Source of the DNA: an uncultured Coriobacteriia bacterium
Lineage (GTDB): Bacteria; Actinomycetota; Coriobacteriia; Anaerosomatales; PALSA-660
Assembly (NCBI GenBank): GCA_963726435.1
Contig: CAVSCJ010000007.1
Location: 129,021 to 193,020, forward strand
Direction of reading: 5' to 3'
DNA length: 64,000 nt
In this document: positions 44,056 through 59,078 of the stretch, one piece after another
Layout: every line of letters begins with the position of its first letter
How positions within the stretch are numbered: the first letter of the stretch is position 1
Program-made: the position numbers and the translations under genes
Notes under the pieces: model-generated
The model's database searches: none
Told to the model about the DNA's origin: nothing
Seen by the model: only the letters and a program-made list of their open reading frames with translations

Positions 44056-44158
44056 GGGGCGGGAGTTGCGACGCTAGCGGGGCAGCGAGAGTCGGTGGGT
44101 AGTACGATGAATCGAGGGATCTGCGGCGCTATACAGACCGCTGAATGACTGGTTAGGC
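44056..44158 (+). repeat. About 105-bp repeat, copy 1, ending in a GTTAGGC core at a cassette boundary
   Basis: Aligns with 48068-48176. Shared core GTACG.TGA.TCGAGGGATCTG.GG.GCT..CAGACCGCTGAAT.AC..GTT.G. It is preceded by the direct repeat AGTTGCGACGC x2 (44045-44055 and 44064-44074). Confidence 0.7.
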
Positions 44159-44210
44159 GGACAGGGGTTTGGAGCAAACCTCAGCCGGGACCGATTGAAG
44201 GGACTCGGCC

Positions 44211-44817
44211 ATGCGTGAGCTGATCGTCACAACCTTCCTGACCCTCGACGGAGTCATGCAAGCTCCGGGTGCACCGCACGAGGACGAGGAGAGAGGTTTC
44301 GCCCTTGGTGGCTGGCAGGCCAGCTACCCGGACGACGTGGGGGCAGCGGTGTTGGCGGCCTTCATGGAAGAGCCGTTCGACCTGCTGCTGGGACGCAAGA
44401 CCTACGACATCTTCGCTGCTTACTGGCCCTACCACGTTGATGGATCGATTGGAAGGAAGTTCGGAGAGGCCACCAAGTACGTGGCGTCGCGCGGCGCTCC
44501 GGGCTCTTCCGTGGGAGCGGTCGGTGCTACTCGAGAACGATGTCGCCCAATCCATCGCGGAGCTGAAGAGTCAAGACGGTCCGCAGCTGCACGTCTACGG
44601 CAGCGGCGACCTCATACAGACCCTCAGAGTTCACGATCTTGTCGATCGCTATCTGCTGTGGATCCATCCAGTCGTACTCGGATCCGGAAAACGTCTCTTC
44701 CCCGAGGGCACCTGCCCGGGTGCGCTACGGCTCGTGGACAGTCAGGTATCCACGACCGGGGTCATGATCGGCAGCTATGAGCCGTCCGGCGAGGTCGTTA
44801 CTGGGACGATTGAGTGA
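44211..44817 (+). CDS. RibD C-terminal-domain (dihydrofolate reductase-like) protein, frameshifted near 44480-44500
   Basis: MRELIVTTFLTLDGVMQAPG...LLLGRKTYDIF (ORF 44211) continues as LHVYGSGDLIQTLRVHDLVDRYLLWIHPVVLGSGKRLF (ORF 44269). Confidence 0.75.
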
Positions 44818-44834
44818 ACCTGCACGCGGGTGCC

Positions 44835-44938
44835 GCCTAACCAGCGCTTCCAGCAGACAATACGCCGCCAGCAGGGTAGGTTCGGGCACTACGCGCAGCT
44901 CGGCGGCGTATTGCAGCTGAAGCGCAACAACGTCAGGC
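44835..44938 (+). repeat. attC site
   Basis: R'' GCCTAAC (44835-41). Inner arms GCGCTTCCAGCAGACAATACGCCGCC / GGCGGCGTATTGCAGCTGAAGCGC with bulges. R' GTCAGGC (44932-38). CCGCCTAAC is the complement of the cassette start GTTAGGCGG at 44152. Confidence 0.85.
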
Positions 44939-44987
44939 CGACAGAGGGAGCCCCGCGCGCAAGGCCGTCCGAGAAGGGGTTGGCGCC

Positions 44988-45605
44988 ATGAGACGCGTCT
45001 TGGCCTGGGCCAGCATCATCGGCGCATCGTTCTTCCTTGTCGCAGCCGTCGCTCTTCACATTCTGGCGCCGGAGGTCGATCCGATGCGCTATGGGTTGAG
45101 CTTCTACGCGCACTCGCGCTTTGGCTTCCTGATCGATCTTGCGATCGTGCTCATGGGCGTCTCGGCAATCACCCTGGCGCTTGCCTTGTGGCCGGCCAAG
45201 CCGTCAACCGCGGGCCGCCTCGGGTTGCTTCTCCTCATGGCCTTCGGGGTCACCGAGTTCGTGGCGGGCTTCTTCCCGGTTGACGCGCCGGGGGCTTCTC
45301 CAAGCCTCGCAGGTTCCATCCACAGCATCGCGGGCTACAACTTCCTTCTTGTTGTCGCTGCTGTCCTGCTCGTCGAGAAGAGTCGTTCCACGGACGGCGA
45401 CCCCGGTCATCCACGGCCGATCACTGTCCTGTTCGCGTGGCTCTTTCTCGCCTCCACGGTGCTCCTCTTCACGTTCAACGGCCCCCTCGTGGCGCTCGGC
45501 ATCGGGGGCGCCATTCAGCGCGTGTTCTTCGTGGTGCTGATCGCGTGGATCCTGCTCAAGGCCATGCCGCTTGTGCGGACTGAGGCGCCAAACTTGGCCG
45601 CCTAG
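44988..45605 (+). CDS. DUF998-like polytopic membrane protein
   Basis: 205-aa ORF with six hydrophobic segments. Family assignment is by pattern only. Confidence 0.5.
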   Translation: MRRVLAWASIIGASFFLVAAVALHILAPEVDPMRYGLSFYAHSRFGFLIDLAIVLMGVSAITLALALWPAKPSTAGRLGLLLLMAFGVTEFVAGFFPVDAPGASPSLAGSIHSIAGYNFLLVVAAVLLVEKSRSTDGDPGHPRPITVLFAWLFLASTVLLFTFNGPLVALGIGGAIQRVFFVVLIAWILLKAMPLVRTEAPNLAA

Positions 45606-45961
45606 TCCCGGGCGGCTTGACCAGCGGTCGAAGTGGGCGACCTCGCGGACACGTTCATCGAGGGACGGAAGCAGCCCGCGAGCGTCTTCTTCGAGACCGC
45701 GTGCGGCTATTCCCGTGGGGGCACGGTTACCTACACCAAGGACGGGATCGTCGCAGCGACGATCTACATCGCCCCGCCCGCCGGGCCCTAGCCGGGACGG
45801 GCCGTCGCCAGCGGGATCGCGGCGCCCCGGCGGCCGGACCGCCGTGGGTGATCGCCGATGGCTCCGCTCGCTCGGCACGCATCGAGGGCGGGGAATCGTC
45901 GGGGGACGGTTCGGCTCGTGTCAGGCCCGCGCGCGACGCTGAACTCGGCGGTCGTCCGCGT

Positions 45962-46000
45962 GGGTTGTCACTTGACAACCCACTCTAGGCCGCGTAGCCT
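45962..46000 (+). promoter_or_regulatory. Sigma70-like promoter embedded in a perfect palindrome
   Basis: GGGTTGTCA-CT-TGACAACCC (45962-45981) contains TTGACA (45972-77). After a 17-nt spacer comes TAGCCT (45995-46000). It lies 22 nt upstream of the 46022 ORF. Confidence 0.55.
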
Positions 46001-46021
46001 CCGGAAAGGGAACGAGCACAC

Positions 46022-46285
46022 GTGGCCAGAAGGCGACATCCCGATCCCCACATAGAAGGCGCCCTGCGACATGCGGAGCGGAAGGGCTGGCGGGTCGAGC
46101 CGACGGGCAAGAGCTCGCACGCGTGGGGTCGACTCTACTGCCCGCACAACGATCCCTACTGCCGGTGTGGCGAGTTCTGTGTGACGAGCATCAGCGGGAC
46201 GCCGCGCGATCCCGAGAACCAGGCCCGGCAGATCGTGCGCAGGGTCGACGCCTGCAGTGGCGGCAAGTCCGCTGAAGAGGACTGA
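46022..46285 (+). CDS. Small Cys-rich HicA-like protein (putative toxin)
   Basis: KGWRVEPTGKSSHAWGRLYCP...CRCGEFCV. The resemblance to the YcfA/HicA fold is by motif only. Confidence 0.45.
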   Translation: MARRRHPDPHIEGALRHAERKGWRVEPTGKSSHAWGRLYCPHNDPYCRCGEFCVTSISGTPRDPENQARQIVRRVDACSGGKSAEED

Positions 46286-46294
46286 GAGCGGGAG

Positions 46295-46834
46295 GTGCAA
46301 GGACCGATGAAGGAATACGAGTTCACGCTGCGCTTCACGCTGCCCTCGGTCGATGGCGACCTCGATGATCTCGTCGAGCGACTCGGCGAGGGCGGATGCG
46401 ACGACGCTCTCGTCGGCATCGGGCATCCGGGGCGCATCGCCCTCGACTTCACCCGGAACGCGGATTCGGCTTCCGAGGCCGTCTTCAGCGCTGTCGCCGA
46501 TGTCTCGCGTGCGTTGCCCGGCGCGACGCTTGCGGAGGTCGCGCCCGACCTGGTCGGCATCACGGACGTGGCGGATCTGGTCGGCTGCTCGCGGCAGAAC
46601 ATCCGGCAGATGATGATCGCCGCCGGGTCCGGGGCGCCGGTGCCGGTCCATGAGGGCAGCCCGTCCGTGTGGCATCTCGCGCCCGTGCTCAGCTGGCTCG
46701 CGCTCGCGAAGGGCTATCGAGTCGAGCAGTCGCTGCTGGACGTCGCGTCGATCGCGATGCAGCTCAACCTCGCCATCGATGCCCGCTGCGCCGACTCCGT
46801 GGTTCAGGAACAGATCCGGACGCTTCTCGCGTAG
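46295..46834 (+). CDS. DNA-binding protein (HicB-like N-terminal half plus excisionase-type HTH), putative antitoxin/regulator
   Basis: KEYEFTLRFTLP... then ITDVADLVGCSRQNIRQM. It starts 9 nt after the preceding ORF. Confidence 0.5.
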   Translation: MQGPMKEYEFTLRFTLPSVDGDLDDLVERLGEGGCDDALVGIGHPGRIALDFTRNADSASEAVFSAVADVSRALPGATLAEVAPDLVGITDVADLVGCSRQNIRQMMIAAGSGAPVPVHEGSPSVWHLAPVLSWLALAKGYRVEQSLLDVASIAMQLNLAIDARCADSVVQEQIRTLLA

Positions 46835-46988: not shown

Positions 46989-48044
46989 ATGCCCCCAAGA
47001 CTGTCTGCCCAGGCGCCCCGAGAGTGGATCGCGCGCCATCCGCTGGCCAGCTTCATCGTCTTGGCCTACGCGATCTCCTGGACAGCGTGGCCGCTGTCGT
47101 ACGTGTTCGATCTCGGTGTGAGCAACGGGTTCGGCATCATCGGATCACTCGGCCCCGCGCTGGCTGCAGTGATCGTCTGCGCCCTGGCGAGTTCCGAGAA
47201 GTCGGAGCCCAGTCGTAGCAGGTGGTGGCTGTTCGCGGGTGCCGGCGCGTTCGCCTTGGCGGTCATGGTGCTGCGCAGACTGTGGATCACCCCGGCATGG
47301 TTGGCTGTCGCCGGCAAGGTCACGACCACGTCCGCCTTCCCCACGCCGATGGCCCTGCCCGTCGATGTGCTGGCCGCGGTCGCCGTGGCACTCATCATCT
47401 CGGGAGTCCGCTCCCGGCGACCGGGCGTCCGTGGCCTTCTGCGCTCACTCGACCTGCGCGCCTACCCCGTGAGGTGGTACTGGTGGGCCATCGCGATAGG
47501 GGCGTACCCGGTCGTCATGGTCGTGAGTGCAGCCGCCTCGTCACAGCTCGGGCTGCCCGTGTCGGTCCCGCAGCTGTCCGGAGTGTGGTACCTGCTCGCG
47601 CTGGATGTGGTCCTGACTCTTCTGTACCTCATGATCGGCGGAGGCGGTCTCGAGGAGCCGGGGTGGCGCGGCCTCGCGCTGCCCTTGCTGCAGAAGCGCA
47701 GTCGGCCCTTGCGCGCCAGCCTCATCCTGGCTGTGATCTGGGCGCTGTGGCACTTGCCGTTGCTGCTGCTCGAGGGCGCTTCGCCGGTCGCCATCGTTCC
47801 CTACCTGCTGCTGGAAGTCGTCCCGCTCGCGATCCTGTTCACCGCGGTGTTCGGCCTGACCAAGGGCAGTCTCCCGGTGGTCATCCTGCTGCACGCCTCG
47901 ATCAACGTCGCGCCGATCTTCCTGCCGACCGCAGGGATCGGGACGATCGTGTTCCTGGTTCTCATGATCGGCGTGGCGGTCTGGATGTGGCGATCTCCCC
48001 AGACGTTCGCGGCAGGCGGATCGAGTGTTGCCCTGCAAGACTGA
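46989..48044 (+). CDS. CPBP (CAAX/Abi-type) intramembrane metalloprotease
   Basis: GGGLEEPGWRGLALPLL, IWALWHLPLL, LLHASIN. ATG 46989. Confidence 0.75.
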   Translation: MPPRLSAQAPREWIARHPLASFIVLAYAISWTAWPLSYVFDLGVSNGFGIIGSLGPALAAVIVCALASSEKSEPSRSRWWLFAGAGAFALAVMVLRRLWITPAWLAVAGKVTTTSAFPTPMALPVDVLAAVAVALIISGVRSRRPGVRGLLRSLDLRAYPVRWYWWAIAIGAYPVVMVVSAAASSQLGLPVSVPQLSGVWYLLALDVVLTLLYLMIGGGGLEEPGWRGLALPLLQKRSRPLRASLILAVIWALWHLPLLLLEGASPVAIVPYLLLEVVPLAILFTAVFGLTKGSLPVVILLHASINVAPIFLPTAGIGTIVFLVLMIGVAVWMWRSPQTFAAGGSSVALQD

Positions 48045-48067: not shown

Positions 48068-48176
48068 GGGGCGGGTCTGCGTCGTGTAAGGCTAGCCGGG
48101 TAGTGAGAGTGGGCTGGTGGTACGCTGAGTCGAGGGATCTGGGGTGCTGCGCAGACCGCTGAATCACCAGTTGGAG
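48068..48176 (+). repeat. About 105-bp repeat, copy 2, ending in GTTGGAG at a cassette boundary
   Basis: See copy 1. The terminal GTTGGAGCG matches the complement of CGCTCTAAC (48656-64), the attC start of the next cassette, with one mismatch. Confidence 0.7.
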
Positions 48177-48189
48177 CGAATGGGATGAC

Positions 48190-48663
48190 GTGGCGGGTGT
48201 CGAGATACGAGCTGCCAGCGCTTCGGAGGCATGCGCGCTGACAGAGCTCGCGCAGGCAGCGAAGGCTCACTGGGGATACGAGCCGTCGCTGCTCGACCTG
48301 TGGGCCCCGCAACTCACTCTCACGCCGGACTACATCTGCGCTCATGATGTCTGGGTTGCGTCCATGGGGGATGGTGCCGTCGGATTCTACGCACTTGAGT
48401 CGCGCGACAGTGTCATGGAGTTGGAGCATCTGTGGGTGAATCCGCGCTGGATGGGGCAGGGGATCGGGCGCGCGCTGTTCGAGCACGCCGTCCTGCGAGC
48501 GCGGGCGGCATGCGCGGTGCAACTGCGTGTCGTGTCGGACCCGAACGCGGAGAGGTTCTACCTGCGGATGGGAGCGCGCCGCGTCGGTCAGCAGGAGTCG
48601 ACGCCTAAGGGTCGACAGCTACCGGTGCTGCTGCTCGACCTTGCCGGTGGCCCATCGCTCTAA
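48190..48663 (+). CDS. GNAT N-acetyltransferase (cassette)
   Basis: LWVNPRWMGQGIGRALFEHAV, FYLRMG. The stop codon TAA lies inside R'' of its attC. Confidence 0.8.
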   Translation: MAGVEIRAASASEACALTELAQAAKAHWGYEPSLLDLWAPQLTLTPDYICAHDVWVASMGDGAVGFYALESRDSVMELEHLWVNPRWMGQGIGRALFEHAVLRARAACAVQLRVVSDPNAERFYLRMGARRVGQQESTPKGRQLPVLLLDLAGGPSL

Positions 48664-48755
48664 CACGCGCATCCAGCAGACTCGGCGCTCGCAATGTAGA
48701 CTCGGCTCGACAGCGGATCGCTGCGCCTCGCAGCTGATGCGCTACAACGTCAGGC
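48658..48755 (+). repeat. attC site
   Basis: CTCTAAC...GCGCATCCAGCAG / CGCAGCTGATGCGC...GTCAGGC. Confidence 0.8.
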
Positions 48756-48778: not shown

Positions 48779-49330
48779 GTGAGCATCCGAATCTCTAATC
48801 CAGATGAGACTCTGCGCGACGCGTTCCTGCGCATGCTCGACGACTACGATGCCCGTGATGCGCTCAACTCCGAGCGCTTCTCGAGTGCGCGTTCCGACTT
48901 CAGCGCATACGTAACGGGTCTGCGGGATGAGGAACGCGGACTTGGACTGGAAGACGGTTTCGTGCCCTGTTCTCATCGATGGCTGCTGGATGAGCAGGGC
49001 GAGCTTGTTGCCATCGTGCGTGTCCGGCACAGCCTCGACCACCCGTTTCTGGCCGAGCAGGGCGGACATATCGGCTATGACGTTCCCCCGTCATCGCGCG
49101 GGCGCGGCCATGGTAGCGCAGCTCTTCGAGCTGGATTGGCACGAGCGCACGAGCTTGGTCTGACGCGTGTGCTTGTGTGTGCTTCGGCGAACAACTCAGC
49201 GTCGTGCGCCGTGATCGAGAGTTGCGGCGGACTACTCGAGAGGGAACTCCATTCGGACCATTTCGGCTGCGTTGTCCGCCGGTACTGGATTGAGCTCTTG
49301 CCAACGGCGAGCAGCGGCGAGCCGGCCTAA
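48779..49330 (+). CDS. GNAT-like acetyltransferase (cassette), paralogue of 50832..51377
   Basis: GGHIGYDVPPSSRGRGHGSAAL. The TAA stop lies inside R''. Confidence 0.7.
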   Translation: MSIRISNPDETLRDAFLRMLDDYDARDALNSERFSSARSDFSAYVTGLRDEERGLGLEDGFVPCSHRWLLDEQGELVAIVRVRHSLDHPFLAEQGGHIGYDVPPSSRGRGHGSAALRAGLARAHELGLTRVLVCASANNSASCAVIESCGGLLERELHSDHFGCVVRRYWIELLPTASSGEPA

Positions 49331-49412
49331 CAGGCGGATCAAGCTGGCGGCCAGGAGGTGTACGCTCTGAGAGAGGCGGAGAAGCCGCAGCTTATCCGCT
49401 AGCACGTTAGGC
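49325..49412 (+). repeat. attC site
   Basis: GCCTAAC...GCGGATCAAGCTGGCGGC / GCCGCAGCTTATCCGC...GTTAGGC, with two bulged bases. Confidence 0.85.
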
Positions 49413-49449: not shown

Positions 49450-50715
49450 ATGAGGACGGCTAAGGCGGCACTGGCCATTCCAGCGGACCCAACTGTGTCG
49501 CCGGGTCCTGGGCGCCTCGTGTTCATAGACAACCTTCGCTACCTCATGGTGGTGTTGGTCGTCGTGTTCCACTCCGTGGCAGCGTACGCCGTCATCGCGT
49601 CGCATTGGCCGGTCCACGACACCACGGCCATCGCCGCGACCGTCATCCGCGAGTTCCTCGACGTGTTCTTGATGCCCGTGATGTTCTTCGCTGCCGGCTA
49701 CTTCGCGCTGCCCTCACTTCTCAAGCACGGTCAGCTGGAGTTCCTCAAGGACAAGGTGCGTCGGCTGCTCGTCCCATGGGCGCTCGCGGTCTTCGTCGTC
49801 CTGCCTCTCGTGCTCTACGGCAACCAGACAGCGACGGTCATTCGGCCTTTCCGGCGGTACTGGCTTACGTACGTGGCCAGCTTCCAGACGCGTCTCCGCC
49901 CCTCTGCGGTAACGGTGGGAATCACGACCCAGGCGGTCTACTGGTTCATCTCGCTGCTGTTCGCGTTCTTCGCCGGATTCGCGCTGATTCAGCTGATGAG
50001 AAGCCGGATGCGCGGCGGCGACACGGTTACCGATCACAGGCCGAATCCGGTTTGCTCCGTGTTCGGGGCGCTGGTCACCTTCGGGTTGGTGACCTCGGCC
50101 GCCTACTTCGCGCTCCTGCTCGTGGTCCCCGATTCGAGCTGGTTCACGCTCTCCGCGTTCCTCGAGTTCCAGGTGACGAGGCTGGTGCCTTTCGTCGGCT
50201 GTTTCGCGCTCGGCGTTTGGGCGCAATCGCACCGCTGGTTCGCCTATCGAAAACCGCTGGGTTCTCTCGCCGTCTGGGGCGCGGTCAGCGTGGTGCTCTC
50301 CGCGGCGTATCTCTGGTTCGGCCAGCCCATGTTCGCCGACGTGTCGGGGACCGCTCACTTCTCGGTCGGCTACCTGCTGGGCTTCGCCTTCCTGCGGTCG
50401 TTCCTGGTGTTGTCGCTGCTCGTCTTCCTCGTCTCGTTCGGCGTGGGCAACTGGGATCAGGCGAGCCGTGTCGACCGACAACTAGCGTCGTCGTCGTACG
50501 ACGTCTACTTGGTCCACTTCCTCATCGTGGTAGCGCTCCAGGAGGCGCTTGTGGAGTGGGTGGGCGGCCCGGTTGCGGCGAAGGCCGCGATCGTGTTCGT
50601 TGCCTCGCTCGGGCTTAGCGTCGCGATCAGCCGATGGATCCTTGCGCGGCACTCCCGCGCCTTCGCGGTCGCGATCCTGGCGCTGTTCGCGTTCTGCCTC
50701 GTTGTTCGTCCTTAG
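49450..50715 (+). CDS. Acyltransferase family 3 (OafA-like) membrane protein (cassette)
   Basis: FIDNLRYLMVVLVVVFHS. About 10 TM segments. Confidence 0.75.
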   Translation: MRTAKAALAIPADPTVSPGPGRLVFIDNLRYLMVVLVVVFHSVAAYAVIASHWPVHDTTAIAATVIREFLDVFLMPVMFFAAGYFALPSLLKHGQLEFLKDKVRRLLVPWALAVFVVLPLVLYGNQTATVIRPFRRYWLTYVASFQTRLRPSAVTVGITTQAVYWFISLLFAFFAGFALIQLMRSRMRGGDTVTDHRPNPVCSVFGALVTFGLVTSAAYFALLLVVPDSSWFTLSAFLEFQVTRLVPFVGCFALGVWAQSHRWFAYRKPLGSLAVWGAVSVVLSAAYLWFGQPMFADVSGTAHFSVGYLLGFAFLRSFLVLSLLVFLVSFGVGNWDQASRVDRQLASSSYDVYLVHFLIVVALQEALVEWVGGPVAAKAAIVFVASLGLSVAISRWILARHSRAFAVAILALFAFCLVVRP

Positions 50716-50730
50716 GGTGGAAGCCGCGCT

Positions 50731-50817
50731 GCCCAACAAGCGCTTCCATCTGACGGCCAGAAGCGCTAGCTTCGAAGTGAGGCGCAAGGCCGCAGCTGAA
50801 GCGCAACCACGTTAGGC
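50731..50817 (+). repeat. attC site
   Basis: GCCCAAC...GCGCTTCCATCTGACGGCC / GGCCGCAGCTGAAGCGC...GTTAGGC. Confidence 0.85.
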
Positions 50818-50831: not shown

Positions 50832-51377
50832 GTGAGCACGGGCATGCTGCGCGTCTCCCCACCTGATAAGGCGTACTCGGAAGCGTTCATTCGGATGTTG
50901 GATGACTACGCCGCGAATGATCCCGCGCCCGGGGAGCAATTCTCGGCTGGACGGCTCGACTTCGGAGCGTACGTCGCGAAGTTGCGCGACGAGGAGCGCG
51001 GCGTTGGGCTGCCGGACGGCTACGTGCCCTGCTCTCACCGTTGGCTGATCGACCGCGGGGAGATTGCGGGCGTCGTGCGCGTTCGGCACAGCATCGCTCA
51101 CCCGCTACTGTCGCAAGAGGGCGGTCACATCGGATACGACATTCCGCCGTCGTGCAGGCGTCGCGGCAACGGGTTGGCCGCCCTCGTCGTCGGGCTGGAC
51201 CATGCGAGTGAGCTTCGGCTTACCCGCGTACTACTGTGTGCGGCCGCGAGCAACACGCCGTCGCGCGCAATCATCGAAAGGTGTGGCGGGCGGCTCGAGA
51301 GCGAGCACTACTCGAGACGCCTCGGGTGCGCAGTCTGCCGATACTGGATCGACGTACCGCAATCCCCAGCGGCCTAA
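50832..51377 (+). CDS. GNAT-like acetyltransferase (cassette), paralogue of 48779..49330
   Basis: GGHIGYDIPPSCRRRGNG. Collinear similarity to the 48779 product. The TAA stop lies inside R''. Confidence 0.7.
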   Translation: MSTGMLRVSPPDKAYSEAFIRMLDDYAANDPAPGEQFSAGRLDFGAYVAKLRDEERGVGLPDGYVPCSHRWLIDRGEIAGVVRVRHSIAHPLLSQEGGHIGYDIPPSCRRRGNGLAALVVGLDHASELRLTRVLLCAAASNTPSRAIIERCGGRLESEHYSRRLGCAVCRYWIDVPQSPAA

Positions 51378-51433: not shown

Positions 51434-52737
51434 AGCCTCGGTCTCGACGGCGGGGTGACCCGAATCGGATCTGTCGCCTTCATGGCTGACTTTCAGGTGT
51501 TATGTCCCCTGCCGCCGGGAACCGAGGGGTCGTCGTCGTGACCTGATAGGAGCCTGGCCTAGAGGCCCCAGCTAAGGCGTGTCCGCCGACGATCCCCGAG
51601 CTCGGATGCCTCCGACGGAAGGGGACGGTCATGATCGTAGTCGGGATAGACCCGCACATGAAGACCCACACGGCGGTCGCCGTCGATGCGGTTACGGGCG
51701 TGAGCATCGCCGAGAGGACCGTCACCTGTGACGGTACCGGGCACGACGAGCTGCTCGCCTGGGCGAGGGGTCTGGATGCGGATCGCCGCTTCGCTATCGA
51801 GGACTGCCGACACGTTTCGGGAAGGCTCGAGCGCCACCTGCTCCCAAGGGGAGAGCGGGTGGTGCGTGTGCCGCCCAAGATGATGGCAGGGGCGCGTTCC
51901 TCAGCACGCACCTACGGCAAGTCGGACCCGATCGACGCGGCGTGCGTGGCTCGCGCCGCGCTGCGTGAGCCCGATCTGCCAGAAGCTGTGCTGACGGGTC
52001 CCGAACACGACGTGCGCCTGCTCTCCGACCACCGCGACGACCTCGTTGACGAGCGCAAACGCATCCAGAAGCGCCTGAGGTGGAACTGCCACGACCTCGA
52101 GGTGGGACTCGAGCTGCCGCCGAGGGTGCTGGACCGCTACGTGTGGCTGGACCGGCTGGAGGCGGCGCTGCGCGCATTGCCGCAGACCATGCGCCGGCGT
52201 GTCGCGCTCGACCAGCTCTCGCGCTGTCGCGAACTCACGAGAGAGATCCGCTCGCTCGAACGCGAGATCCGCGGGCTCATGCGTGACCTCGCACCCGACC
52301 TGCTCGCCATCCCGGGCTGCTCGGCCCTTTGCGCCGCCCAGCTCGTCGGGCAGACCGCGGGGGCCTCGCGCTTCAGAAGCGAGTCCGCCTTCGCGATGCA
52401 CACGGGATGCGCACCGCTGCCGGTGTCCTCGGGCAAGTCGACGCGCCACCGCCTCAATCGATGCGGAAACCGACGCCTCAACTCCACGATCCACATGATC
52501 GCGGTAACCCAGGCCAGGATGCACCCGCCTGCGATCGCCTACATGGAGCGCAAACAGGCCGAGGGGATGAGCTACCGAGAGGCACTGCGCTGCCTCAAGC
52601 GACACATCGCCCGGGTGGTCTTCAAGACGATGCAGCGAGCGGAGCACCTGCAGGCGGGGGAGGTCGATATCGGCAACCTTCCGCCCAAGTTCTATCGCCG
52701 TTGCCGTGTAGGATTGACATAGGAGCAACACCTGACG
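51417..52737 (+). mobile_element. IS110-family insertion sequence (ends approximate)
   Basis: The DEDD/Transposase_20 gene is flanked by the 7-nt direct repeat CCTGACG (51417-23 and 52731-37). The left end has about 208 nt of non-coding sequence and the right end about 10-15 nt. TCAGGTGTT (about 51492) and AACACCTGA (52727-35) form an inverted pair. Confidence 0.7.
51631..52722 (+). CDS. IS110-family (DEDD) transposase/recombinase
   Basis: MIVVGIDPHMKTHTAVAVD. C-terminal LLAIPGCSALCAAQLVGQTAGASRFRSESAFAMHTGCAPLPVSSGKSTRHRLNRCGNRRLN. Confidence 0.9.
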   Translation: MIVVGIDPHMKTHTAVAVDAVTGVSIAERTVTCDGTGHDELLAWARGLDADRRFAIEDCRHVSGRLERHLLPRGERVVRVPPKMMAGARSSARTYGKSDPIDAACVARAALREPDLPEAVLTGPEHDVRLLSDHRDDLVDERKRIQKRLRWNCHDLEVGLELPPRVLDRYVWLDRLEAALRALPQTMRRRVALDQLSRCRELTREIRSLEREIRGLMRDLAPDLLAIPGCSALCAAQLVGQTAGASRFRSESAFAMHTGCAPLPVSSGKSTRHRLNRCGNRRLNSTIHMIAVTQARMHPPAIAYMERKQAEGMSYREALRCLKRHIARVVFKTMQRAEHLQAGEVDIGNLPPKFYRRCRVGLT

Positions 52738-52772
52738 CGCTTCGCTCGCAGGTTATCCGTAAGCCGTTAGCC
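52738..52772 (+). repeat. attC right portion with R' GTTAGCC
   Basis: GCGCTT (complement of AAGCGC at 51379-84) ... GTTAGCC (52766-72). GTTAGCCAG is a 9/9 complement of CTGGCTAAC at 54182-90. Confidence 0.55.
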
Positions 52773-52785: not shown

Positions 52786-53508
52786 ATGGGGATTCTCTAC
52801 CCTGCGATGAAACGTTGTCCGGAATGCGGGCAAATTGCCGTAGCACCGGATTACTTCCACGATGGTGACTACTGCTTCCCAAGTCACGGTGGTTGCGGCC
52901 ACCATTTCCCCAATTTGACCATCACAGCAGACGGCCTCACGAAGGGGATGGCACTTGACCCCTACAAACACCCCGGCTCCGGCTATTCCTTCTTTGGCGG
53001 GTTGGTTCACGAGCTCAAGTACTACACCACTCTGTCCAACGCACAGAAACGCGCCCTAGTCCATAAGGCCGTTGTCGAGATCGGGAGACGGGGGGCCGTC
53101 GAGACCCTGGTCGGGAACGCCAGGAACTTGCTAGTTGTTCCAGCACCATCTTCTAAGCACAGGACTGTTCAGCACGTGTATGAGATAGCCAGGGGCGTAG
53201 CTGGCTCGCGGTATCAGTACCTTGAGGCTCTAGTGAAGTCCACGAGTACTGAGTCAAAGACCATGACGCACGGCGGCAAGTACCAGAGAGGGGACTTCCG
53301 CTGCAACTACCTCTTGAATGGTTACTCAGTTCTCATTGTTGATGATACGTATGGAGAAGGCGCAACTCTGGAGGCTTGCATAGACGTGCTGCGCACATCA
53401 AAGGCCGACGACGTCTACTTCCTGTCACTCTGCAAAAACATGGGCGGCGGTATCAAACAGTCGGACGCGAACCCAGGCATCATCTTCGATGACGATGTCC
53501 CGTTCTGA
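52786..53508 (+). CDS. ComF-like phosphoribosyltransferase-domain protein with an N-terminal zinc ribbon (cassette)
   Basis: CPECG...C..SHGGCGHH. VVPAPSSKHR. PRT loop VLIVDDTYGEGATL. RBS AGAGGGGGG. Spot count 53 G+C in the first 100 nt. Confidence 0.7.
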   Translation: MGILYPAMKRCPECGQIAVAPDYFHDGDYCFPSHGGCGHHFPNLTITADGLTKGMALDPYKHPGSGYSFFGGLVHELKYYTTLSNAQKRALVHKAVVEIGRRGAVETLVGNARNLLVVPAPSSKHRTVQHVYEIARGVAGSRYQYLEALVKSTSTESKTMTHGGKYQRGDFRCNYLLNGYSVLIVDDTYGEGATLEACIDVLRTSKADDVYFLSLCKNMGGGIKQSDANPGIIFDDDVPF

Positions 53509-53538
53509 TTCGTCACGGCTCTAGTAGCGGGAGCAACA

Positions 53539-54171
53539 ATGGCTGTTGTGTTCATCAGCGGGTCAAGAACGATTCCGTACCTGCCAGCAGAGGTCCAGGC
53601 AAGAGTCGACAACATGATCGACAACGGGCTGCACATCGTTGTCGGAGACTCAGAGCGAGGCGTGGACAATCTGATCGTGTCGTACCTCTACGATCGCGGC
53701 TACATCAACGTCTCCATCTACTCGGTCCACTCCAAGAGCAGAATTGGGCGGCTGCTGCCGGATTGGTCATTCCAGCGGATTGCTCCCGACATCCTCGCTC
53801 GACAGGACAAGAACGGGAACACCACGAATCGTCGCGAGCTCGAAACGTACAAAGACAGGGCCATGTGCGATGTGTGCAACTTCGCTCTCGTGATATGGCA
53901 GGACACCTACACGAACCCTAGATTCGGGCAGACATCGGTCAGCGCAGGCAGTCTCAGGAATGCAGTCCAGCTCTTGCTCGCCGGGAAGCCTGTCACCATG
54001 TACCACAGGAGCGAAGGCGACATGCTTGAGGAGGACTTCACACATCGCGAATTCAGATCGATCTCCGCATTGGAGGAGTTCGTGAAGAGTCTGGACGGCA
54101 TCGTGCAGGCGAGGTTCTCGAAGATGCTGAAGGACGAGTCGAAAATGGAGCAGCAGCATTTGGACCTCTGA
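53539..54171 (+). CDS. SLOG/DUF2493-like (DprA/LOG-type Rossmann) protein with a helical C-terminal extension (cassette)
   Basis: VVFISGSR...HIVVGDSERGVDNL...NFALVIWQD...SAGSLRNAVQLLLAGKPVTMY matches the 'GSR / GGA.GAD / WDG.S.GT / gKpV' pattern of that fold. Assigned by motif only. Confidence 0.5.
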   Translation: MAVVFISGSRTIPYLPAEVQARVDNMIDNGLHIVVGDSERGVDNLIVSYLYDRGYINVSIYSVHSKSRIGRLLPDWSFQRIAPDILARQDKNGNTTNRRELETYKDRAMCDVCNFALVIWQDTYTNPRFGQTSVSAGSLRNAVQLLLAGKPVTMYHRSEGDMLEEDFTHREFRSISALEEFVKSLDGIVQARFSKMLKDESKMEQQHLDL

Positions 54172-54183
54172 TGTTGGGGCCCT

Positions 54184-54243
54184 GGCTAACAATGAGATCG
54201 AGCGGCCTCACTGCGTTCGCCGCTCATCTCAAACACGTTAGGT
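54184..54243 (+). repeat. attC site (60-bp class)
   Basis: GGCTAAC...GAGATCGAGCGGC / GCCGCTCATCTC...GTTAGGT. Same class as 56484-56543. Confidence 0.88.
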
Positions 54244-54317: not shown

Positions 54318-54530
54318 ATGTCGGTTTCACTGCTGATTGAACTGGAGCAGGAGAATGACGGCCGCTGGATTGCGGAGGTCGCCGATCTTCCTGGCGTCTT
54401 GGCATACGGCTCGACTCACGACGAAGCCATCGCACACGTTCAGGCACTCGCCCTCAGAGTGATCGCTGACCGCCTTGAGAACGAAGAGGCCGGGCGCGAG
54501 TATCTCAGCATCTCCTTCAACGCCGCGTGA
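54318..54530 (+). CDS. hicB: HicB-family antitoxin (cassette)
   Basis: LIELEQENDGRWIAEVADLPGVLAYGSTHDEAIAHVQAL. Confidence 0.85.
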   Translation: MSVSLLIELEQENDGRWIAEVADLPGVLAYGSTHDEAIAHVQALALRVIADRLENEEAGREYLSISFNAA

Positions 54531-54739
54531 GTGACTGGCCAAGCAGCAGCGCGAAGAAGGTTCTCGCCGCACTGCTCCGAATCGGATGGACGGTCAAACG
54601 CCAGACAGGTTCCCATCGCGTCCTTAGCCGCCCCGGTTGGTCCGACTTTGTCTTCGCATTCCACGATCGGGAACCGATCGGCCCGCGGATGCTCGCCCGA
54701 ATCGCAAAACACACTGGCCTCACACCAGACGACTTGTAG
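54527..54739 (+). CDS. hicA: HicA-family mRNA interferase toxin (cassette)
   Basis: AKKVLAALLRIGWTVKRQTGSHRVLSRPG. GTG overlaps the hicB stop. Confidence 0.85.
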   Translation: MSDWPSSSAKKVLAALLRIGWTVKRQTGSHRVLSRPGWSDFVFAFHDREPIGPRMLARIAKHTGLTPDDL

Positions 54740-54753
54740 CAGGCCTTGCGCGC

Positions 54754-54854
54754 ACCTAACCAGCGCGTCAAGTCGGACGGCGCGCCCTGGGAGCTAGAAT
54801 CGAAGGGCCGGGCGGCGAAAAGCGCGCCGCCGCTTACGCGCAACACCGTTAGCC
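54754..54854 (+). repeat. attC site (about 100-bp class)
   Basis: ACCTAAC...GCGCGTCAAGTCGGACGGCGCGCC / GGCGCGCCGCCGCTTACGCGC...GTTAGCC, with three bulged bases. CGCACCTAAC is a 10/10 complement of the cassette start at 54237. Confidence 0.9.
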
Positions 54855-54888: not shown

Positions 54889-55281
54889 GTGTCACTGCAA
54901 TCATGTCGTGAATGCGGGAAGGACGTTTCCACGGAGGCGGCAGCGTGTCCGTACTGCGGGGCTGCAGCACCGACGCGGGAGAAGTCCGGCGACTGGGTAC
55001 CATGTCCCAACTGCGGCAGCTCGAATACACGCAGGATCGGGCCCGGCATCATGGGTTTCGCGTCGCTGGTGATGGGCAGTTGTCTGCTGTGGATTCCCGT
55101 CGTGGGTTGGGTCCTCGGACCAATCATGATTCTGGTGGCCGTAGCGTTCTGGGTTTCCGCTCTGATTCCGCGAGGCAAGATCTCGTTCCAATGCCAATCG
55201 TGCAAGAAGTGGTTCACTGTGCCCAAAGCTGACTTGATCAAGCCCTCGCAGGAAGCCTCCGCGATTGACGCGGGGGACTGA
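54889..55281 (+). CDS. Triple zinc-ribbon membrane protein (cassette)
   Basis: CRECG..(11)..CPYCG, CPNCGS, two TM segments, CQSCKKWF. RBS GGGAGGAG. GTG start. Confidence 0.6.
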   Translation: MSLQSCRECGKDVSTEAAACPYCGAAAPTREKSGDWVPCPNCGSSNTRRIGPGIMGFASLVMGSCLLWIPVVGWVLGPIMILVAVAFWVSALIPRGKISFQCQSCKKWFTVPKADLIKPSQEASAIDAGD

Positions 55282-55388
55282 CGGACGTCTCATCTCTCGC
55301 GCTGCCAAGCGGTGCCCCGGGCTCCCCGGCCGCTTAGCGAGACGATATGGGAACGCCAGATTGGGCGAACATCGGCTCAGCCGCTGCT

Positions 55389-55489
55389 GGCTAACAACGG
55401 CGTCAAGTCGGACGGCGCGCCCTGAGAGCTAGAATCGAAGGGCCGGGCGGCGAAAGGCGCGCCGCCGCTTACGCCGAACACCGTTAGCA
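55389..55489 (+). repeat. attC site (about 100-bp class)
   Basis: GGCTAAC...GTCAAGTCGGACGGCGCGCC...GGCGCGCCGCCGCTTACGCC...GTTAGCA. Near-identical to 54754-54854. Confidence 0.9.
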
Positions 55490-55611: not shown

Positions 55612-55821
55612 ATGAACACGGCAAACCCCAACGGACGCGAGCTTTGGCAAATGATGCTCGAGACCGATCCCGGCCTCACCGATGGTGATTCGCGCACGTA
55701 CTGGAAGATGAACGCGGCGATCCAGGCGGTCGCAAGCAGCATCGACGCGTCGTCGGACGCGGTGCGCGAGGTCCTCGGCAACTACGATCCAGCAACCGAT
55801 GAACTGGATCCTGGTGAGTAG
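55612..55821 (+). CDS. Small acidic hypothetical protein (cassette)
   Basis: RBS GGAAGGA then ATG 55612. 69 aa. Confidence 0.45.
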   Translation: MNTANPNGRELWQMMLETDPGLTDGDSRTYWKMNAAIQAVASSIDASSDAVREVLGNYDPATDELDPGE

Positions 55822-55906
55822 ACTGCGCGAACGCGTACGGCCGGTTCTTGGCAGTCCGTGCCCGGCCATCAGCGGAAATGCCATCTGCGCCTGAGGAGCG
55901 GACAAA

Positions 55907-56476
55907 TTGATCCTACGAACCCTGCTCATCGCCTCTGTGTTGTGCCTCGTTCTCGTGACCGGTTGCGCAGGCAGCAGAAGCCAATCGGCTGAACAACCTG
56001 TCACGAGCCAGGCGGCTCCAGCCGCCGCCGCGCCAGATCCCCTGGCGCCCATTTCTGCCTACATGGCGGACGCAAACAGGCTCATCAAGGAGCAGGAGAA
56101 GGCGATAGGCGATTGCACCCGCCTCTTGCTCAAGTACGAGCAACTCTCTTCCTACGACAAAGAGTCGCTTCACTTCGCGCTGAACGAGGTTGATTCTGCG
56201 ACTTCCTCATACGCGTCTCTGGCGCCTCCATCCTCTCTTGCCAAGGTGCATGGTCTAAACAGGCAGGCGATGGCCCAACTGGGAATCGCCCTGCGAAGTT
56301 ACAACCTCTACTTAGCCAGCAATCGCGTCATGCCTAGCGACATGAAGGCGGCGGAATCCAACTTCGCCGGCGCTGCCCTCTATCGCGACAAGGCGAACGA
56401 GGAGCTGCAGCGCGTCAGCAGCGACCTCGGGATTCAGCTCCGACCTTTCGCGGTGATTGACGTTGGTCAGTTCTAG
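55907..56476 (+). CDS. Lipoprotein, helical (cassette)
   Basis: RBS GAGGAG then TTG 55907. Lipobox LVTGC. Confidence 0.55.
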   Translation: MILRTLLIASVLCLVLVTGCAGSRSQSAEQPVTSQAAPAAAAPDPLAPISAYMADANRLIKEQEKAIGDCTRLLLKYEQLSSYDKESLHFALNEVDSATSSYASLAPPSSLAKVHGLNRQAMAQLGIALRSYNLYLASNRVMPSDMKAAESNFAGAALYRDKANEELQRVSSDLGIQLRPFAVIDVGQF

Positions 56477-56483
56477 AGGGGTG

Positions 56484-56543
56484 TGCTAACCAAGAGATCG
56501 AGCGGACTCACTTCGTTCGCCGCTCATCTCTAAACCGTTAGGT
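56484..56543 (+). repeat. attC site (60-bp class)
   Basis: TGCTAAC...GAGATCGAGCGGA / GCCGCTCATCTC...GTTAGGT. Confidence 0.88.
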
Positions 56544-56709
56544 GAGAGCTTACACGCGGTCTTGCGCGTATCAGGAGATACGCGCCTGAACGGTTCATCG
56601 GCGGTCTGACAACAGGGTGTAGAGGGAAGGGCAGGCCGGTCCTCTCCCGGGGTCCGATCCACTCGATTTCGCGCACCTGAGCAGGGCTGACGCACAGTCC
56701 CGTGGCCTC

Positions 56710-56808
56710 ACCTAACAATCGCGTCAAGTCGGACGGCGCGCCTGAAGTCTAGAATCGAAGAGCCGGGCGGCGAAAGTCGCGCCGCCACTTACGCGAAAGA
56801 CGTTAGGC
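56710..56808 (+). repeat. attC site (about 100-bp class) of an ORF-less cassette
   Basis: ACCTAAC...GTCAAGTCGGACGGCGCGCC...GCGCCGCCACTTACGCG...GTTAGGC. CTCACCTAAC is a 10/10 complement of the cassette start at 56537. Confidence 0.88.
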
Positions 56809-56832: not shown

Positions 56833-57168
56833 ATGGCAGGACAATTCCTTCCCATCATCAAGGCAGTCGCACCATATCTGACGCAGATTGCCTCCACAGC
56901 GATTCCTGCCTTCACCTCGAAACCCGCAGCAATCGCGAAGGAAGACCCCGTCATCGCCAAGCAGATCGAGGAACTGCAGACAGCCGCGACCCAGAACGCG
57001 GAGTCCGTTCGGGTTCTGGCCGAGAACCTTCAGCAAGCCATACAAGGCATCGAGACAGCAGCACAGGAGGCGAACAGGCGGGCCGCTACCCTCAGAGCGA
57101 TGCTCTTCATCGCACTCGGCCTCTCAGGACTGTCTCTGCTGCTCAGCGTCTATCTGCTCGCCATGTGA
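56833..57168 (+). CDS. Small helical protein with a C-terminal TM anchor (cassette)
   Basis: 111 aa. C-terminal MLFIALGLSGLSLLLSVYLLAM. Confidence 0.5.
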   Translation: MAGQFLPIIKAVAPYLTQIASTAIPAFTSKPAAIAKEDPVIAKQIEELQTAATQNAESVRVLAENLQQAIQGIETAAQEANRRAATLRAMLFIALGLSGLSLLLSVYLLAM

Positions 57169-57286
57169 TGCCCAAGAACTTGCTAAGTCTTGTAGGGTCG
57201 GAGAGTGCGACTACGGTCTGCCCGCGCGTAGACGGCGCGCGCTCTCGAGCTTTCGCCAGATGATTTACTCTAGCGAGCCGTTGTCC

Positions 57287-57387
57287 GCCTAACAAGCACT
57301 TCGACCCGAAGACCTCGGCAAGTAAGCTTGCGCTTCCTCCGAGGCTCTGCGAGCCTCGGTCTCGGGTCAAGTGCAACACCGTTCGAT
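57287..57387 (+). repeat. attC site
   Basis: GCCTAAC...GCACTTCGACCCGAAGACCTCGG / CCTCGGTCTCGGGTCAAGTGC...GTTCGAT. Confidence 0.85.
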
Positions 57388-58189
57388 GGAACTTGAGACA
57401 ATGGACGACAGCAGTGCCTATCGATCCGTCGAGCTCGCCGCACTCTACGATGCCGTGTACGCAAACTGGGGTGACATCGCCTTCTGGCAAGTGATGGTTG
57501 CGGACGTGCAAGACGGTCCGCTCCTCGAGCTGGGCTGCGGAACCGGCCGCGTCCTATTACCCCTCGCGCGAGCTGGCCACAGGGTCACCGGTCTCGATCT
57601 CGGGACGCACATGCTTGCGCGCTGCCGCGCCAAGCTTCTAGCAGAACAGCCTGGTGTACGCGAGAGGGTGATGCTGCTCGAAGCAGACATGACGTTGTTC
57701 GACCTCGATTGCCGTTTTGCCAGCATCTACTGCTCATGCGGCACGTTCCACCACCTCAGCACGAAGGAGCAGCAGCTGGCGTGTCTCGAACGGTGCAGGC
57801 ACCATATGCTGCCGCGTGGAACGCTGGTTCTCGATCTCTTCAATCCCGTTCCCGCGCGCAGCAGGGTCAGCGGCGACGAGCCAGCCAGCGGCGGCGCTGA
57901 GGTGGTCGACTGGACCGATGGTCGGCGTGTCCGCAGCACAGCGACTGTGTTTGACTGCGGGGGACCACAACAGTGGAACGACTGCGAGGTGATCTACGAG
58001 ATTCTCGAGGCAGACGGCACCGCGAGTCAGGTCATTGAGACGTTTCCAATGCGCTTCGTGTTCCGGCAAGAACTCGAGCATCTCCTGGCCCGCTGCGGCT
58101 TCCACATCGTCGCCCTGTATGGCGACCATGATCGATCGGAGTACACCGACGAGTCACCCGGCATGATCGTCGTTGCCACGCCTGACTAG
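57386..58189 (+). CDS. Class I SAM-dependent methyltransferase (cassette)
   Basis: LLELGCGTGRVLLPLA, VTGLDL, LVLDLFNP. ATG 57386 overlaps the R' core GTTCGAT. An alternative ATG is at 57401. Confidence 0.75.
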   Translation: MELETMDDSSAYRSVELAALYDAVYANWGDIAFWQVMVADVQDGPLLELGCGTGRVLLPLARAGHRVTGLDLGTHMLARCRAKLLAEQPGVRERVMLLEADMTLFDLDCRFASIYCSCGTFHHLSTKEQQLACLERCRHHMLPRGTLVLDLFNPVPARSRVSGDEPASGGAEVVDWTDGRRVRSTATVFDCGGPQQWNDCEVIYEILEADGTASQVIETFPMRFVFRQELEHLLARCGFHIVALYGDHDRSEYTDESPGMIVVATPD

Positions 58190-58255
58190 CCATCGGGGCT
58201 CGCCCAAGGGCAGAACGTCGCTCGTGCAACGGGGAGGTTGGAATGGACCGCGTCC

Positions 58256-58343
58256 ATCGAACAAGGGCGTCAAGCAGACGCGCACAGACCGCGCGTAGAA
58301 TGCAGCGCGGCGGGCGCGCTGCTTACGCCCAACCACGTTAGGC
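58256..58343 (+). repeat. attC site
   Basis: ATCGAAC...GGGCGTCAAGCAGACGCGC / GCGCGCTGCTTACGCCC...GTTAGGC. TCCATCGAAC is a 10/10 complement of the cassette start at 57381. Confidence 0.88.
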
Positions 58344-58427
58344 AGAAAAGGGTGGGGCGGAGTGGTCGGCGCGTCTAGGGTGTTCGCGTCAGTCGGCCTC
58401 GTCGCCTGAGTGTGAGAGCGGGCATCC

Positions 58428-58964
58428 GTGAAGTACGTCGCGCTGCTGCGTGGGATCAATGTCGGCAAGGGTGCTCGCGTGCCCATGAAGGCCCTGAAGG
58501 CTCTTCTCGAGGGGCTCGGGCTCAGCGACGTCACCACCTATCTGAACTCGGGCAATGCGATATTCAGTTCATCTCTGAGCGTCCTCGACCTGACGCGTCA
58601 GCTCGAGGACGAGCTTGAGCGGGCGTTCGGCGAGAAGATCCCGACTTTGGTCAAGACGTCAACGGAGGTCATCGCGATCGCGGAGTCGATACCGAGCGAG
58701 TGGGGAAGCGGCGAGGATGAACAGACCTATGTCGCGTACCTGTTCAATGACGTCGACCAGCCGGGTCTAGTTCCGGAGCTGCCGGTCAAGATGGAGTTCA
58801 TGTCCATTTTCTACACACCTGGGGCAATCGTCTGGAACATCAAGCGAGAGAACTACAATCGCAGCCACATCACCAAGATCGTGGAACACAGCTCCTACGC
58901 TCGGATGACCACAAGGAACGTCAACACGGCGAGGAAGCTTGCTGCGCTTTGTGCTGAGTCCTGA
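58428..58964 (+). CDS. DUF1697-family protein (cassette)
   Basis: MKYVALLRGINVGKGARVPMKALKALLE.LG...V.TYLNSGN is the characteristic N-terminus of that family. Confidence 0.7.
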   Translation: MKYVALLRGINVGKGARVPMKALKALLEGLGLSDVTTYLNSGNAIFSSSLSVLDLTRQLEDELERAFGEKIPTLVKTSTEVIAIAESIPSEWGSGEDEQTYVAYLFNDVDQPGLVPELPVKMEFMSIFYTPGAIVWNIKRENYNRSHITKIVEHSSYARMTTRNVNTARKLAALCAES

Positions 58965-58980
58965 CCGCGACGCCGCTGCC

Positions 58981-59078
58981 CAGCAACGGCGTCAAGTCGG
59001 ACGGCACGCCGTTCAAGATAGAATCGAAGGGCCGGGCGACGAAGGGCGCGCCGCCGCTTACGCCGAACAACGTTAGAC
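58981..59078 (+). repeat. attC site (about 100-bp class, degenerate R'')
   Basis: CAGCAAC...GGCGTCAAGTCGGACGGCACGCC / GGCGCGCCGCCGCTTACGCC...GTTAGAC. Confidence 0.8.

Follow-up and report, generated by a model that had tools for sequence, protein, structure and literature searches.

Can a high-GC Gram-positive chromosome hold a sizeable integron cassette array with no integrase of its own, and how would such an array have been assembled? The question is raised by a stretch of 64,000 nt from an uncultured Coriobacteriia bacterium (GCA_963726435.1, CAVSCJ010000007.1, positions 129,021-193,020), which we call the window and whose own numbering is used throughout. The region 38,830-59,078 of the window is very probably a chromosomal array of integron cassettes that lacks an integrase of its own, that is, a cluster of attC sites lacking integron-integrase (CALIN; Cury et al. 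2016, PMC4889954), in the genome of an uncultured member of the Actinomycetota. The same survey found no complete integron in Actinobacteria (Cury 2016, PMC4889954), complete genomes of this phylum were reported to contain 'a few CALIN' and no complete integron (PMC9024848), and a paper of 2026 describes a 'virtual absence' of integrons in Actinomycetota (PMC13323075). Ghaly and colleagues list Actinobacteriota among the phyla with detections (PMC8618304).

The identification begins with the palindromes that separate the genes. Thirteen complete attC sites, each 60-104 nt long, occur between 41.86 and 59.08 kb; every one is intergenic and on the + strand (their positions, from the start of R'' to the end of R', are given with their cassettes below), and a further attC is split by an insertion sequence (IS), with its left half at 51372-51389 and its right half at about 52740-52772. 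The sites fall into families: four sites of about 100 nt share 85-93% identity, two sites of 60 nt share 87%, and the rest are more diverse. The R'' heptamer ends in AAC in all 13. When the sites are aligned, the 10-bp L-box helix is 99% paired, with changes on both sides (compensatory) at 8 of the 10 pairs, and the unpaired top-strand C of column 16 does not vary, giving an extrahelical G on the bottom strand. Not one of 500 column shuffles matched the observed pairing or covariation, and when the partner was shifted by 1-3 columns, the paired share fell from 91% to 20-35%. As single strands of DNA, the bottom strands fold into a single architecture: the R boxes pair if their halves are cognate, the internal loop is asymmetric, and the L stem has 1-3 single-base bulges, which are confined to one arm and include the extrahelical G (position 45 in 54184-54243). 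These folds are better than those of shuffled sequences in 11 of the 13 sites (z -2.0 to -5.7). The window sites thus possess both R''/R' cores and an L''/L' palindrome with extrahelical bases, the elements of attC architecture. Generic scans for AAC...GTT plus a hairpin match throughout the GC-rich core genome and were dropped as an unspecific test; the attC call rests on the covariation, on the logic of the junctions and on validation at other loci.

R1, a covariance model made from the 13 window sites, scores them at 47-83 bits, and its best other match in the 64 kb reaches 17 bits. An Rfam search of 38-60.1 kb gave no match at the gathering threshold or at E<=1; Rfam contains no attC family. 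A preliminary description of this DNA, made from the sequence, had proposed an integron-type array with at least 13 attC sites between 44152 and 59078, whose inner arms pair except for 1-3 bulged bases, and had recommended bottom-strand folding as a check. All of the palindromes that it listed are present at 60-104 nt, and the structural claim agrees with the pairing and the extrahelical bases seen here. The array does occupy the proposed span, but it starts further upstream, at 38,830, and includes the extra attC at 41859-41943.

The second line of evidence is the relationship between each cassette and its own attC. We counted contiguous runs from the TT of G/TT (the slash marks the junction) for 15 cognate junctions and 223 non-cognate combinations. 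In 10 of the 15 cognate junctions, the sequence that follows G/TT is reverse-complementary to the R'' flank of the next attC over an unbroken 7-9 nt; the run was 5 nt or shorter in 197 of the 223 non-cognate combinations. Even the atypical pair GTTCGATGGA (57381) and TCCATCGAAC (58253) is cognate, and every 9/9 and 10/10 match given in the preliminary description was reproduced on recomputation. This complementarity shows that the cassettes were inserted singly, as circles opened at G/TT. For the cassettes starting at 41937 and 44932, only degenerate candidates for a cognate R'' were found, such as GGCGGCTTGAC at about 45615. As a separate observation, the segment 45597-45645, 3' of the DUF998 gene, may be a very degenerate short attC (GGCGGCTTGACCAGCGGTCGAAGTGGGCGACCTCGCGGACACGTTCATC) whose R'' is cognate to the 44932 junction; it was not scored by R1.

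Where the array begins is equally informative. Its first junction, ...GGACTG/TTAAGCG at 38,830, lies 42 nt past the stop codon of a LysE gene, and its 3' end is cut off at 59,866. LysE orthologues with 75-86% identity share the DUF7010-LysE synteny in relatives. In two relatives (L085 and L086), an array with strong R1 matches (52-59 bits) begins past a 3' fragment of LysE, and in L088 (GCA_025361505.1) an array begins after LysE-panD, the attC sites of all three arrays being of the window's family; the LysE locus of L090/L091 has no array. Furthermore, a DUF3267 gene inside the window array is 88% identical in DNA sequence to a gene downstream of LysE in L087. Because of the LysE synteny, the arrays in L085, L086 and L088 and the DUF3267 match in L087, we read the linkage of the array to the host chromosome as real and the locus as a recurrent site in this lineage. 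As for sedentary integrons, the locus is common to L085, L086 and L088 and empty in L090, and its attC sites belong to several families; it is without an integrase.

Two further elements within the array resemble this starting point. D7 is an 82-nt element whose second copy, at 48091-48172, is 79% identical to the first; both copies (D7a and D7b) end at a G/TT where a cognate cassette starts. Position 44152, which the preliminary description had taken as the end of an attC, is actually the end of D7a, a non-palindromic attI-like element. Neither strand of D7a or D7b folds better than shuffled sequences (z about 0), and the idea that D7 is a divergent attC was rejected for lack of a hairpin on either strand. 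No known Rfam family matches the D7 elements. On the left, both copies show homology to the 38,830 junction and the region of the LysE stop codon (local alignment scores 33 and 30, compared with 18 +/- 2.8 for shuffles), and their right ends read CAGACCGCTGAAT...GTT, a motif and spacing that recur in L003 and L004, in the sites that separate intI from the first cassette. The pattern [CG][AG]GACYGYWGAA-N3-8-GTT, fixed from D7a, D7b, L003 and L004, was searched on both strands of 620 kb and gave six matches (L003, L004, L028, L088, D7a and D7b), all six at the 5' border of a first cassette. The L028 match lies downstream of intI, and the L088 match is the exact start of that array and was found after the pattern had been fixed. 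From base composition, about 0.1 match to the motif is expected by chance in the searched data. We read D7a, D7b and the 38,830 site as attI-type anchors, at which an integrase would bind and recombine. The presence of three anchors suggests that the array is either composite, consisting of three sub-arrays, or segmentally duplicated.

An alternative origin for these anchors has to be weighed at this point. The integrase could have inserted cassettes at a secondary site of the attG type 3' of LysE, in which case the anchors would be chromosomal sequence hit by chance and later duplicated. The lack of an adjacent integrase fits such an origin, as does the inclusion of the last ~30 nt of LysE in the anchors; an attI profile search missed them, and attG integration (Loot et al. 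2024) is cited in PMC13323075. What speaks against it is that the 12-nt motif and its GTT spacing are common to the intI-adjacent sites of L003, L004 and L028 and to the start of the L088 array, which follows panD and not LysE, and that the motif has so low a chance expectation. We therefore consider attG-type insertion unlikely, though it retains some weight.

Which enzyme, then, could have built the array? No integrase was found in the window: tblastn of all 64 kb with the L002 IntI and with IntI1 (the latter an approximate sequence) returned nothing better than E=0.049, and Pfam detected no recombinase in the open reading frames (ORFs) at 37.6-44 kb. The absence noted in the preliminary description accordingly extends to the whole window. 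The array starts of L085-L091 and of L001 likewise contained no detectable intI remnants. A CALIN is delimited by two or more attC sites spaced by less than 4 kb, with no intI inside that distance; the array has this arrangement as far as the cut at 59,866 on its 3' side. Complete integrons, with an intI, are found in L003 and L004 and not in the window.

Relatives supply a plausible enzyme. The commonest attC core pattern of the window matched two GTDB genomes, both metagenome-assembled genomes (MAGs): L001, an 'uncultured Actinomycetes bacterium', and L002, an 'uncultured Actinomycetota bacterium'. L001 has nine co-oriented R1 matches spaced 0.2-1.5 kb apart, with several attC types as in the window. 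In L002, one near-identical attC (73.5 bits) belongs to the cassette just downstream of an intI pseudogene (1020-1700, minus strand), which is frameshifted and truncated at its 3' end, keeps the IntI-specific segment LPDALDRKYPKTPAEWGWQWAFPQ and still reaches the TIGR02249 cut-off. Intact relatives of this protein include two NCBI entries named 'MAG: integron integrase [Thermoleophilia bacterium]', which score 412 and 457 bits against TIGR02249 (cut-off 265); by the same measure, the intI products of L003 and L004 score 412 and 391 bits. The gene directly follows leuC-leuD in both L002 and L003 (GCA_054603895.1; 7934-10933, intact) and is co-oriented with the cassettes. The L004 intI, too, runs in the direction of its cassettes, but other housekeeping genes precede it. 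R1 finds sites in the arrays downstream of the L003 and L004 intI genes, and a HicAB cassette linked to the L003 intI is 71% identical in DNA sequence to HicAB of the window. In 52 unrelated metagenomic intI loci, R1 gave 13 matches at E<=0.001, all of them in one of the two known integron layouts: 3' of intI on its own strand, or 5' of it on the other strand. Public Actinomycetota MAGs thus do contain integron integrases with cassette arrays, two of them carrying a Thermoleophilia annotation. The preliminary description had called integrons rare or absent in complete genomes of high-GC Gram-positive lineages; the surveys agree with this, and these MAGs qualify it, the host context being rare and under-described but not unprecedented.

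The same findings bear on whether the CALIN label could be an artefact of the window, the array being part of a complete integron whose intI lies past the true 3' end or elsewhere on the source contig. The array is indeed cut by a GC break inside an ORF, and related MAGs carry intact or decayed intI genes beside cassettes of the same attC type. In both known layouts, however, intI lies at the attI end, and here that end adjoins LysE at a distance of 42 nt with no intI remnant; the L085 and L088 arrays also start at the LysE locus without intI. We regard a complete integron as improbable. Of the two options offered in the preliminary description, a CALIN or an array cut off from its platform, the first stands; a cut is unlikely at the 5' end, which abuts the conserved LysE here and in relatives; the 3' end is truncated at 59,866. 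A last alternative, that the palindromes are elements resembling attC, such as repetitive extragenic palindrome (REP)-like sequences or terminators, or that foreign DNA was mis-joined to an actinobacterial contig, can draw on the frequency of AAC...GTT hairpins in GC-rich DNA and on the compositional break and split ORFs of the contig, and is hardly credible in view of the cassette-specific junction complementarity, the strict co-orientation, the conserved bulged base, the identical site types beside TIGR02249 integrases, the attC-specific IS insertions, the recurrence of the LysE-array linkage in three independent assemblies and the array gene 88% identical to one beside LysE in L087.

Under the favoured CALIN reading, each unit is a gene or gene pair, poor in promoters, with an attC at its end whose bottom strand folds into a hairpin of R-box, asymmetric spacer and L-box with 1-3 extrahelical bases. 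The array sits just 3' of LysE at a non-palindromic, putatively attI-type site, with two more copies of the anchor inside. The enzyme is likely an integron integrase of the family adjoining leuCD in related MAGs, and it would be encoded elsewhere in the genome and act in trans, or would since have been lost. The upstream third (38.8-44 kb) appears eroded, with half an attC, multi-gene stretches free of attC and split ORFs, and GTC in place of GTT at two sites is a further sign of decay; the downstream part, with intact and partly near-identical attC sites, could still be mobilised. Cassettes may be transcribed from a TANNNT box in the loop of each long attC.

Several observations weigh against parts of this account. 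Of the consensus RYYYAAC...GTTRRRY of the preliminary description, the AAC core is present in every site, but R' starts with GTT in 11 of the 13 sites and reads GTCAGGC in the other two (crossovers 44932 and 48749), and the site at 58978-59078 has a poor R''. Two sites do not fold convincingly (z 0.0 at 48658-48755 and z -0.87 at 54754-54854). As several attC sites come from near-identical families, the counts of covariation are partly non-independent, and R1 was trained on the same window sites that it scores. The attI reading of the anchors draws on a 12-nt motif, position and junction, with no adjacent intI, and an nhmmer profile of three attI regions had no significant match to D7 in the window. 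A scan of the array for two-hexamer sigma-70 promoters returned no sites. Finally, the GC break at 59,866 and the many split ORFs indicate imperfect assembly quality.

The contents of the array and its 5' boundary are, from 5' to 3', all on the + strand:

38156-38788, +: chromosomal LysE-family transporter gene (Pfam LysE), its stop 42 nt before the first junction; 5' boundary of the array.
38760-38836, +: first anchor, putatively attI-like, ...CAGACGCTGGTGACGGACTG/TTAAGCG (sequence reading); the array begins at G 38830.
38881-39455, +: Phd/YefM-ParE toxin-antitoxin genes, first cassette-like unit (Pfam PF02604, PF05016).
39485-40300, +: LCM-type methyltransferase gene (Pfam PF04072).
40318-40403, +: apparently eroded attC, an R''/L'' half (GCGCTGACAAGCGGATCGAGCAGAC, about 40318-40345) and a TAGAAT box without the L'/R' half (sequence reading; unscored by R1).
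40433-41864, +: CPBP (Rce1-like) membrane protease region with apparent frameshifts (Pfam PF02517, ORF pattern).
41859-41943, +: attC, 85 nt (R1 58.4 bits; fold z -3.1), 78% identical to an L001 attC.
41955-44001, +: methyltransferase fragment, DUF3267 gene (42508-43134) and membrane protein gene (Pfam), a multi-gene stretch with no recognisable attC.
44057-44158, +: internal putative anchor D7a, non-palindromic, ending CAGACCGCTGAATGACTGG/TTAGGCGG (direct repeat D7); cassette from 44153, junction 9/9 to the next attC.
44153-44938, +: cassette with ORF 44211-44817, frame-split and without Pfam match; attC 44835-44938, R' GTCAGGC (R1 70.6 bits; z -5.7).
44988-45605, +: DUF998 membrane protein gene (Pfam PF06197).
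46022-46834, +: candidate anti-phage pair PDC-M06A and PDC-M06B (PADLOC E 4.8e-36 and 7.4e-71), with no recognisable attC of its own.
46989-48044, +: CPBP (Rce1-like) membrane protease gene (Pfam PF02517).
48078-48176, +: internal putative anchor D7b, 79% identical to D7a, ending CAGACCGCTGAATCACCAG/TTGGAGCG (repeat, fold, junction, motif).
48190-48755, +: GNAT acetyltransferase cassette (Pfam); attC 48658-48755, R' GTCAGGC (R1 66.1 bits).
48779-49412, +: GNAT cassette (Pfam); attC 49325-49412 (R1 73.8 bits; z -3.4).
49450-50817, +: Acyltransferase_3 cassette (Pfam); attC 50731-50817 (R1 72.3 bits).
50832-51389, +: GNAT cassette (Pfam) with the 5' attC half 51372-51389 (GCCTAACAAGCGCATCAT); junction 9/9.
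51390-52740 (right end approximate), +: IS110-family element within the attC (Pfam PF01548, PF02371; NCBIfam NF033542).
52741-52772, +: 3' attC half of a different type (..GGTTATCCGTAAGCC GTTAGCC; sequence), crossover G 52766; junction 9/9 to the next attC.
52786-54243, +: two-gene cassette, phosphoribosyltransferase (PRTase)-like protein and 210-aa protein; attC 54184-54243 (R1 50.6 bits).
54318-54854, +: HicB-HicA toxin-antitoxin cassette (Pfam), 71% identical in DNA to the L003 HicAB cassette; attC 54754-54854 (R1 82.4 bits).
54889-55489, +: zinc-ribbon membrane protein cassette (Pfam); attC 55389-55489 (R1 83 bits).
55612-56543, +: cassette with two function-unassigned ORFs; attC 56484-56543 (R1 46.9 bits).
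56544-56808, +: ORF-less cassette; attC 56710-56808 (R1 79.6 bits; junction 10/10).
56833-57387, +: small membrane protein cassette; attC 57287-57387, R' GTTCGAT (R1 58.7 bits; z -4.6).
57401-58343, +: S-adenosylmethionine (SAM) methyltransferase cassette (Pfam); attC 58256-58343, R'' ATCGAAC matching the unusual preceding R' (junction 10/10; R1 68.3 bits).
58428-59078, +: DUF1697 cassette (Pfam); attC 58978-59078, the last site (R1 75.6 bits).
59140-59866, +: ion-transport protein gene (Pfam PF00520, residues 41-237), which the GC break cuts at residue ~242; either a further cassette or chromosomal flank.

The PRTase-like protein of the two-gene cassette (52786-54171) has weak PADLOC matches to ShosT and PsyrT. 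Its 210-aa partner gave no PADLOC or Pfam match and looks SLOG/DprA-like by sequence, so that the two could form a possible ShosTA-like toxin-antitoxin or defence pair. The genes at 40350-44817 that are split between frames (the CPBP protease, the methyltransferase and ORF 44211-44817) may reflect either decay of an older part of the array or indel errors in a long-read assembly.

The IS110 element has a 240-nt non-coding leader (51390-51630) followed by the transposase gene (51631-52722), whose product scores 188.4 bits against NCBIfam NF033542 (cut-off 140) and so belongs to the IS110 family. An element with the same left end, inserted at the same attC position (after AACAAGCGCATCnT), is present in L088 (12804-14148), the two copies being 78% identical, and 16745-16865 of L086 also matches the left end. 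The element looks like an attC-targeting lineage: at least two distinct cassettes, from separate assemblies, carry it. The attC halves that flank the window copy are of different types, which suggests the loss of an adjacent cassette.

A second feature associated with the attC sites is a short box. Each of the 11 long attC sites of the window contains a single TANNNT hexamer (mostly TAGAAT or TAGACT) at position 33-43 of the top strand, for example at 41893-41898, 48697-48702, 54795-54800, 55430-55435, 56750-56755 and 59019-59024. Over all loci, 21 of 33 sites have the box, compared with 3.7 +/- 1.8 in shuffles (maximum 12 in 1000); the other strand has it in 8. TANNNT is the actinobacterial -10 consensus. 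The box may therefore act as an outward -10-like promoter for the next cassette.

Turning to the surroundings, the window has a GC content of ~68% up to 59.87 kb and contains ordinary chromosomal genes, including one tRNA. A T-box leader (99 bits) lies at 1664-1939, 5' of an anthranilate synthase gene and the trp operon. From ~38.8 kb on, the likely genes are all on the + strand and GC declines gradually to ~60%. The NadE protein has relatives with 97% and 91% identity, and its named relatives (64-70% identity) are all from Actinomycetota MAGs, called 'Coriobacteriia bacterium' several times and 'Actinomycetota bacterium' once; the nearest named relatives of LysE (58-75% identity) are also from 'Coriobacteriia bacterium' MAGs. 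On these protein relationships, and on the Actinomycetes and Actinomycetota titles of the two MAGs matched by the attC core pattern, assignment of the host to the phylum Actinomycetota is secure and its class is not. At 59,866, within the ion-channel ORF, GC falls abruptly from ~60% to ~48%, and from there to 64000 frameshifts split the response-regulator, LuxR and solute-binding genes. The probable cause of this break is a chimeric join in the assembly or inserted foreign DNA.

Why integrons are nearly absent from Actinobacteria, Firmicutes and Alphaproteobacteria is a question that the literature states as open (PMC4889954, PMC9024848, PMC13323075). The window locus and its relatives show that uncultured Actinomycetota keep sizeable arrays, genuine integron integrases and attC families of their own. 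In the literature searched, we found no description of the window attC family or of these Actinomycetota MAG integrons. The interest of the locus lies in its host phylum, in its link to an undescribed Actinomycetota integron family, and in the candidate anchor, promoter-box and IS features. Sequences are now at hand for asking whether integron recombination works in high-GC Gram-positives, how cassettes are expressed there, and whether arrays without an integrase are served in trans; the attC families flagged here may or may not be caught by standard pipelines. A broader synthesis is conceivable, and we put it forward tentatively as more doubtful than probable: an Actinomycetota lineage would have its own integron system, overlooked by surveys, in which a co-oriented intI at the leuCD locus serves in trans integrase-less arrays anchored at attI-type sites of the LysE/panD locus, a -10 (TANNNT) promoter within each long attC (in hosts where a -10 element suffices) gives cassette expression independent of Pc, and an RNA-guided IS110 lineage parasitises the attC sites.

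Among known systems, the window most resembles a CALIN, in that its attC sites are co-oriented and spaced by less than 4 kb, and no intI lies in their vicinity. Like a CALIN, it bears marks of erosion in its half sites, GTC cores and split ORFs, and its content of toxin-antitoxin genes, acetyltransferases, methyltransferases, small membrane proteins and defence candidates is typical of chromosomal arrays. It differs in its host phylum, in its size of ~20 kb with at least 14 sites, in keeping three attI-like anchors and in occupying the same locus in several relatives. Sedentary chromosomal integrons with the co-oriented ('inverted') integrase layout, described in PMC13323075 with reference to IntegronFinder 2.0, are a second point of comparison. 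In L002, L003 and L004, intI lies on the cassette strand, with a fixed place after leuCD in L002 and L003, and the L002-L004 loci have attC types in common with the window, as well as one homologous cassette (HicAB, 71% DNA identity); the window, in contrast, has no intI, and its array is at LysE, another locus. Finally, the IS110 element is comparable to the IS1111-attC group, the attC-targeting IS mentioned in PMC11187229, in that an element of the IS110/IS1111 superfamily occupies one precise attC position, and does so in two or more independent cassettes (window and L088). Unlike that group, the window element has an IS110 layout, in which a long non-coding leader precedes the transposase gene, and it matches 'IS110 family RNA-guided transposase'.

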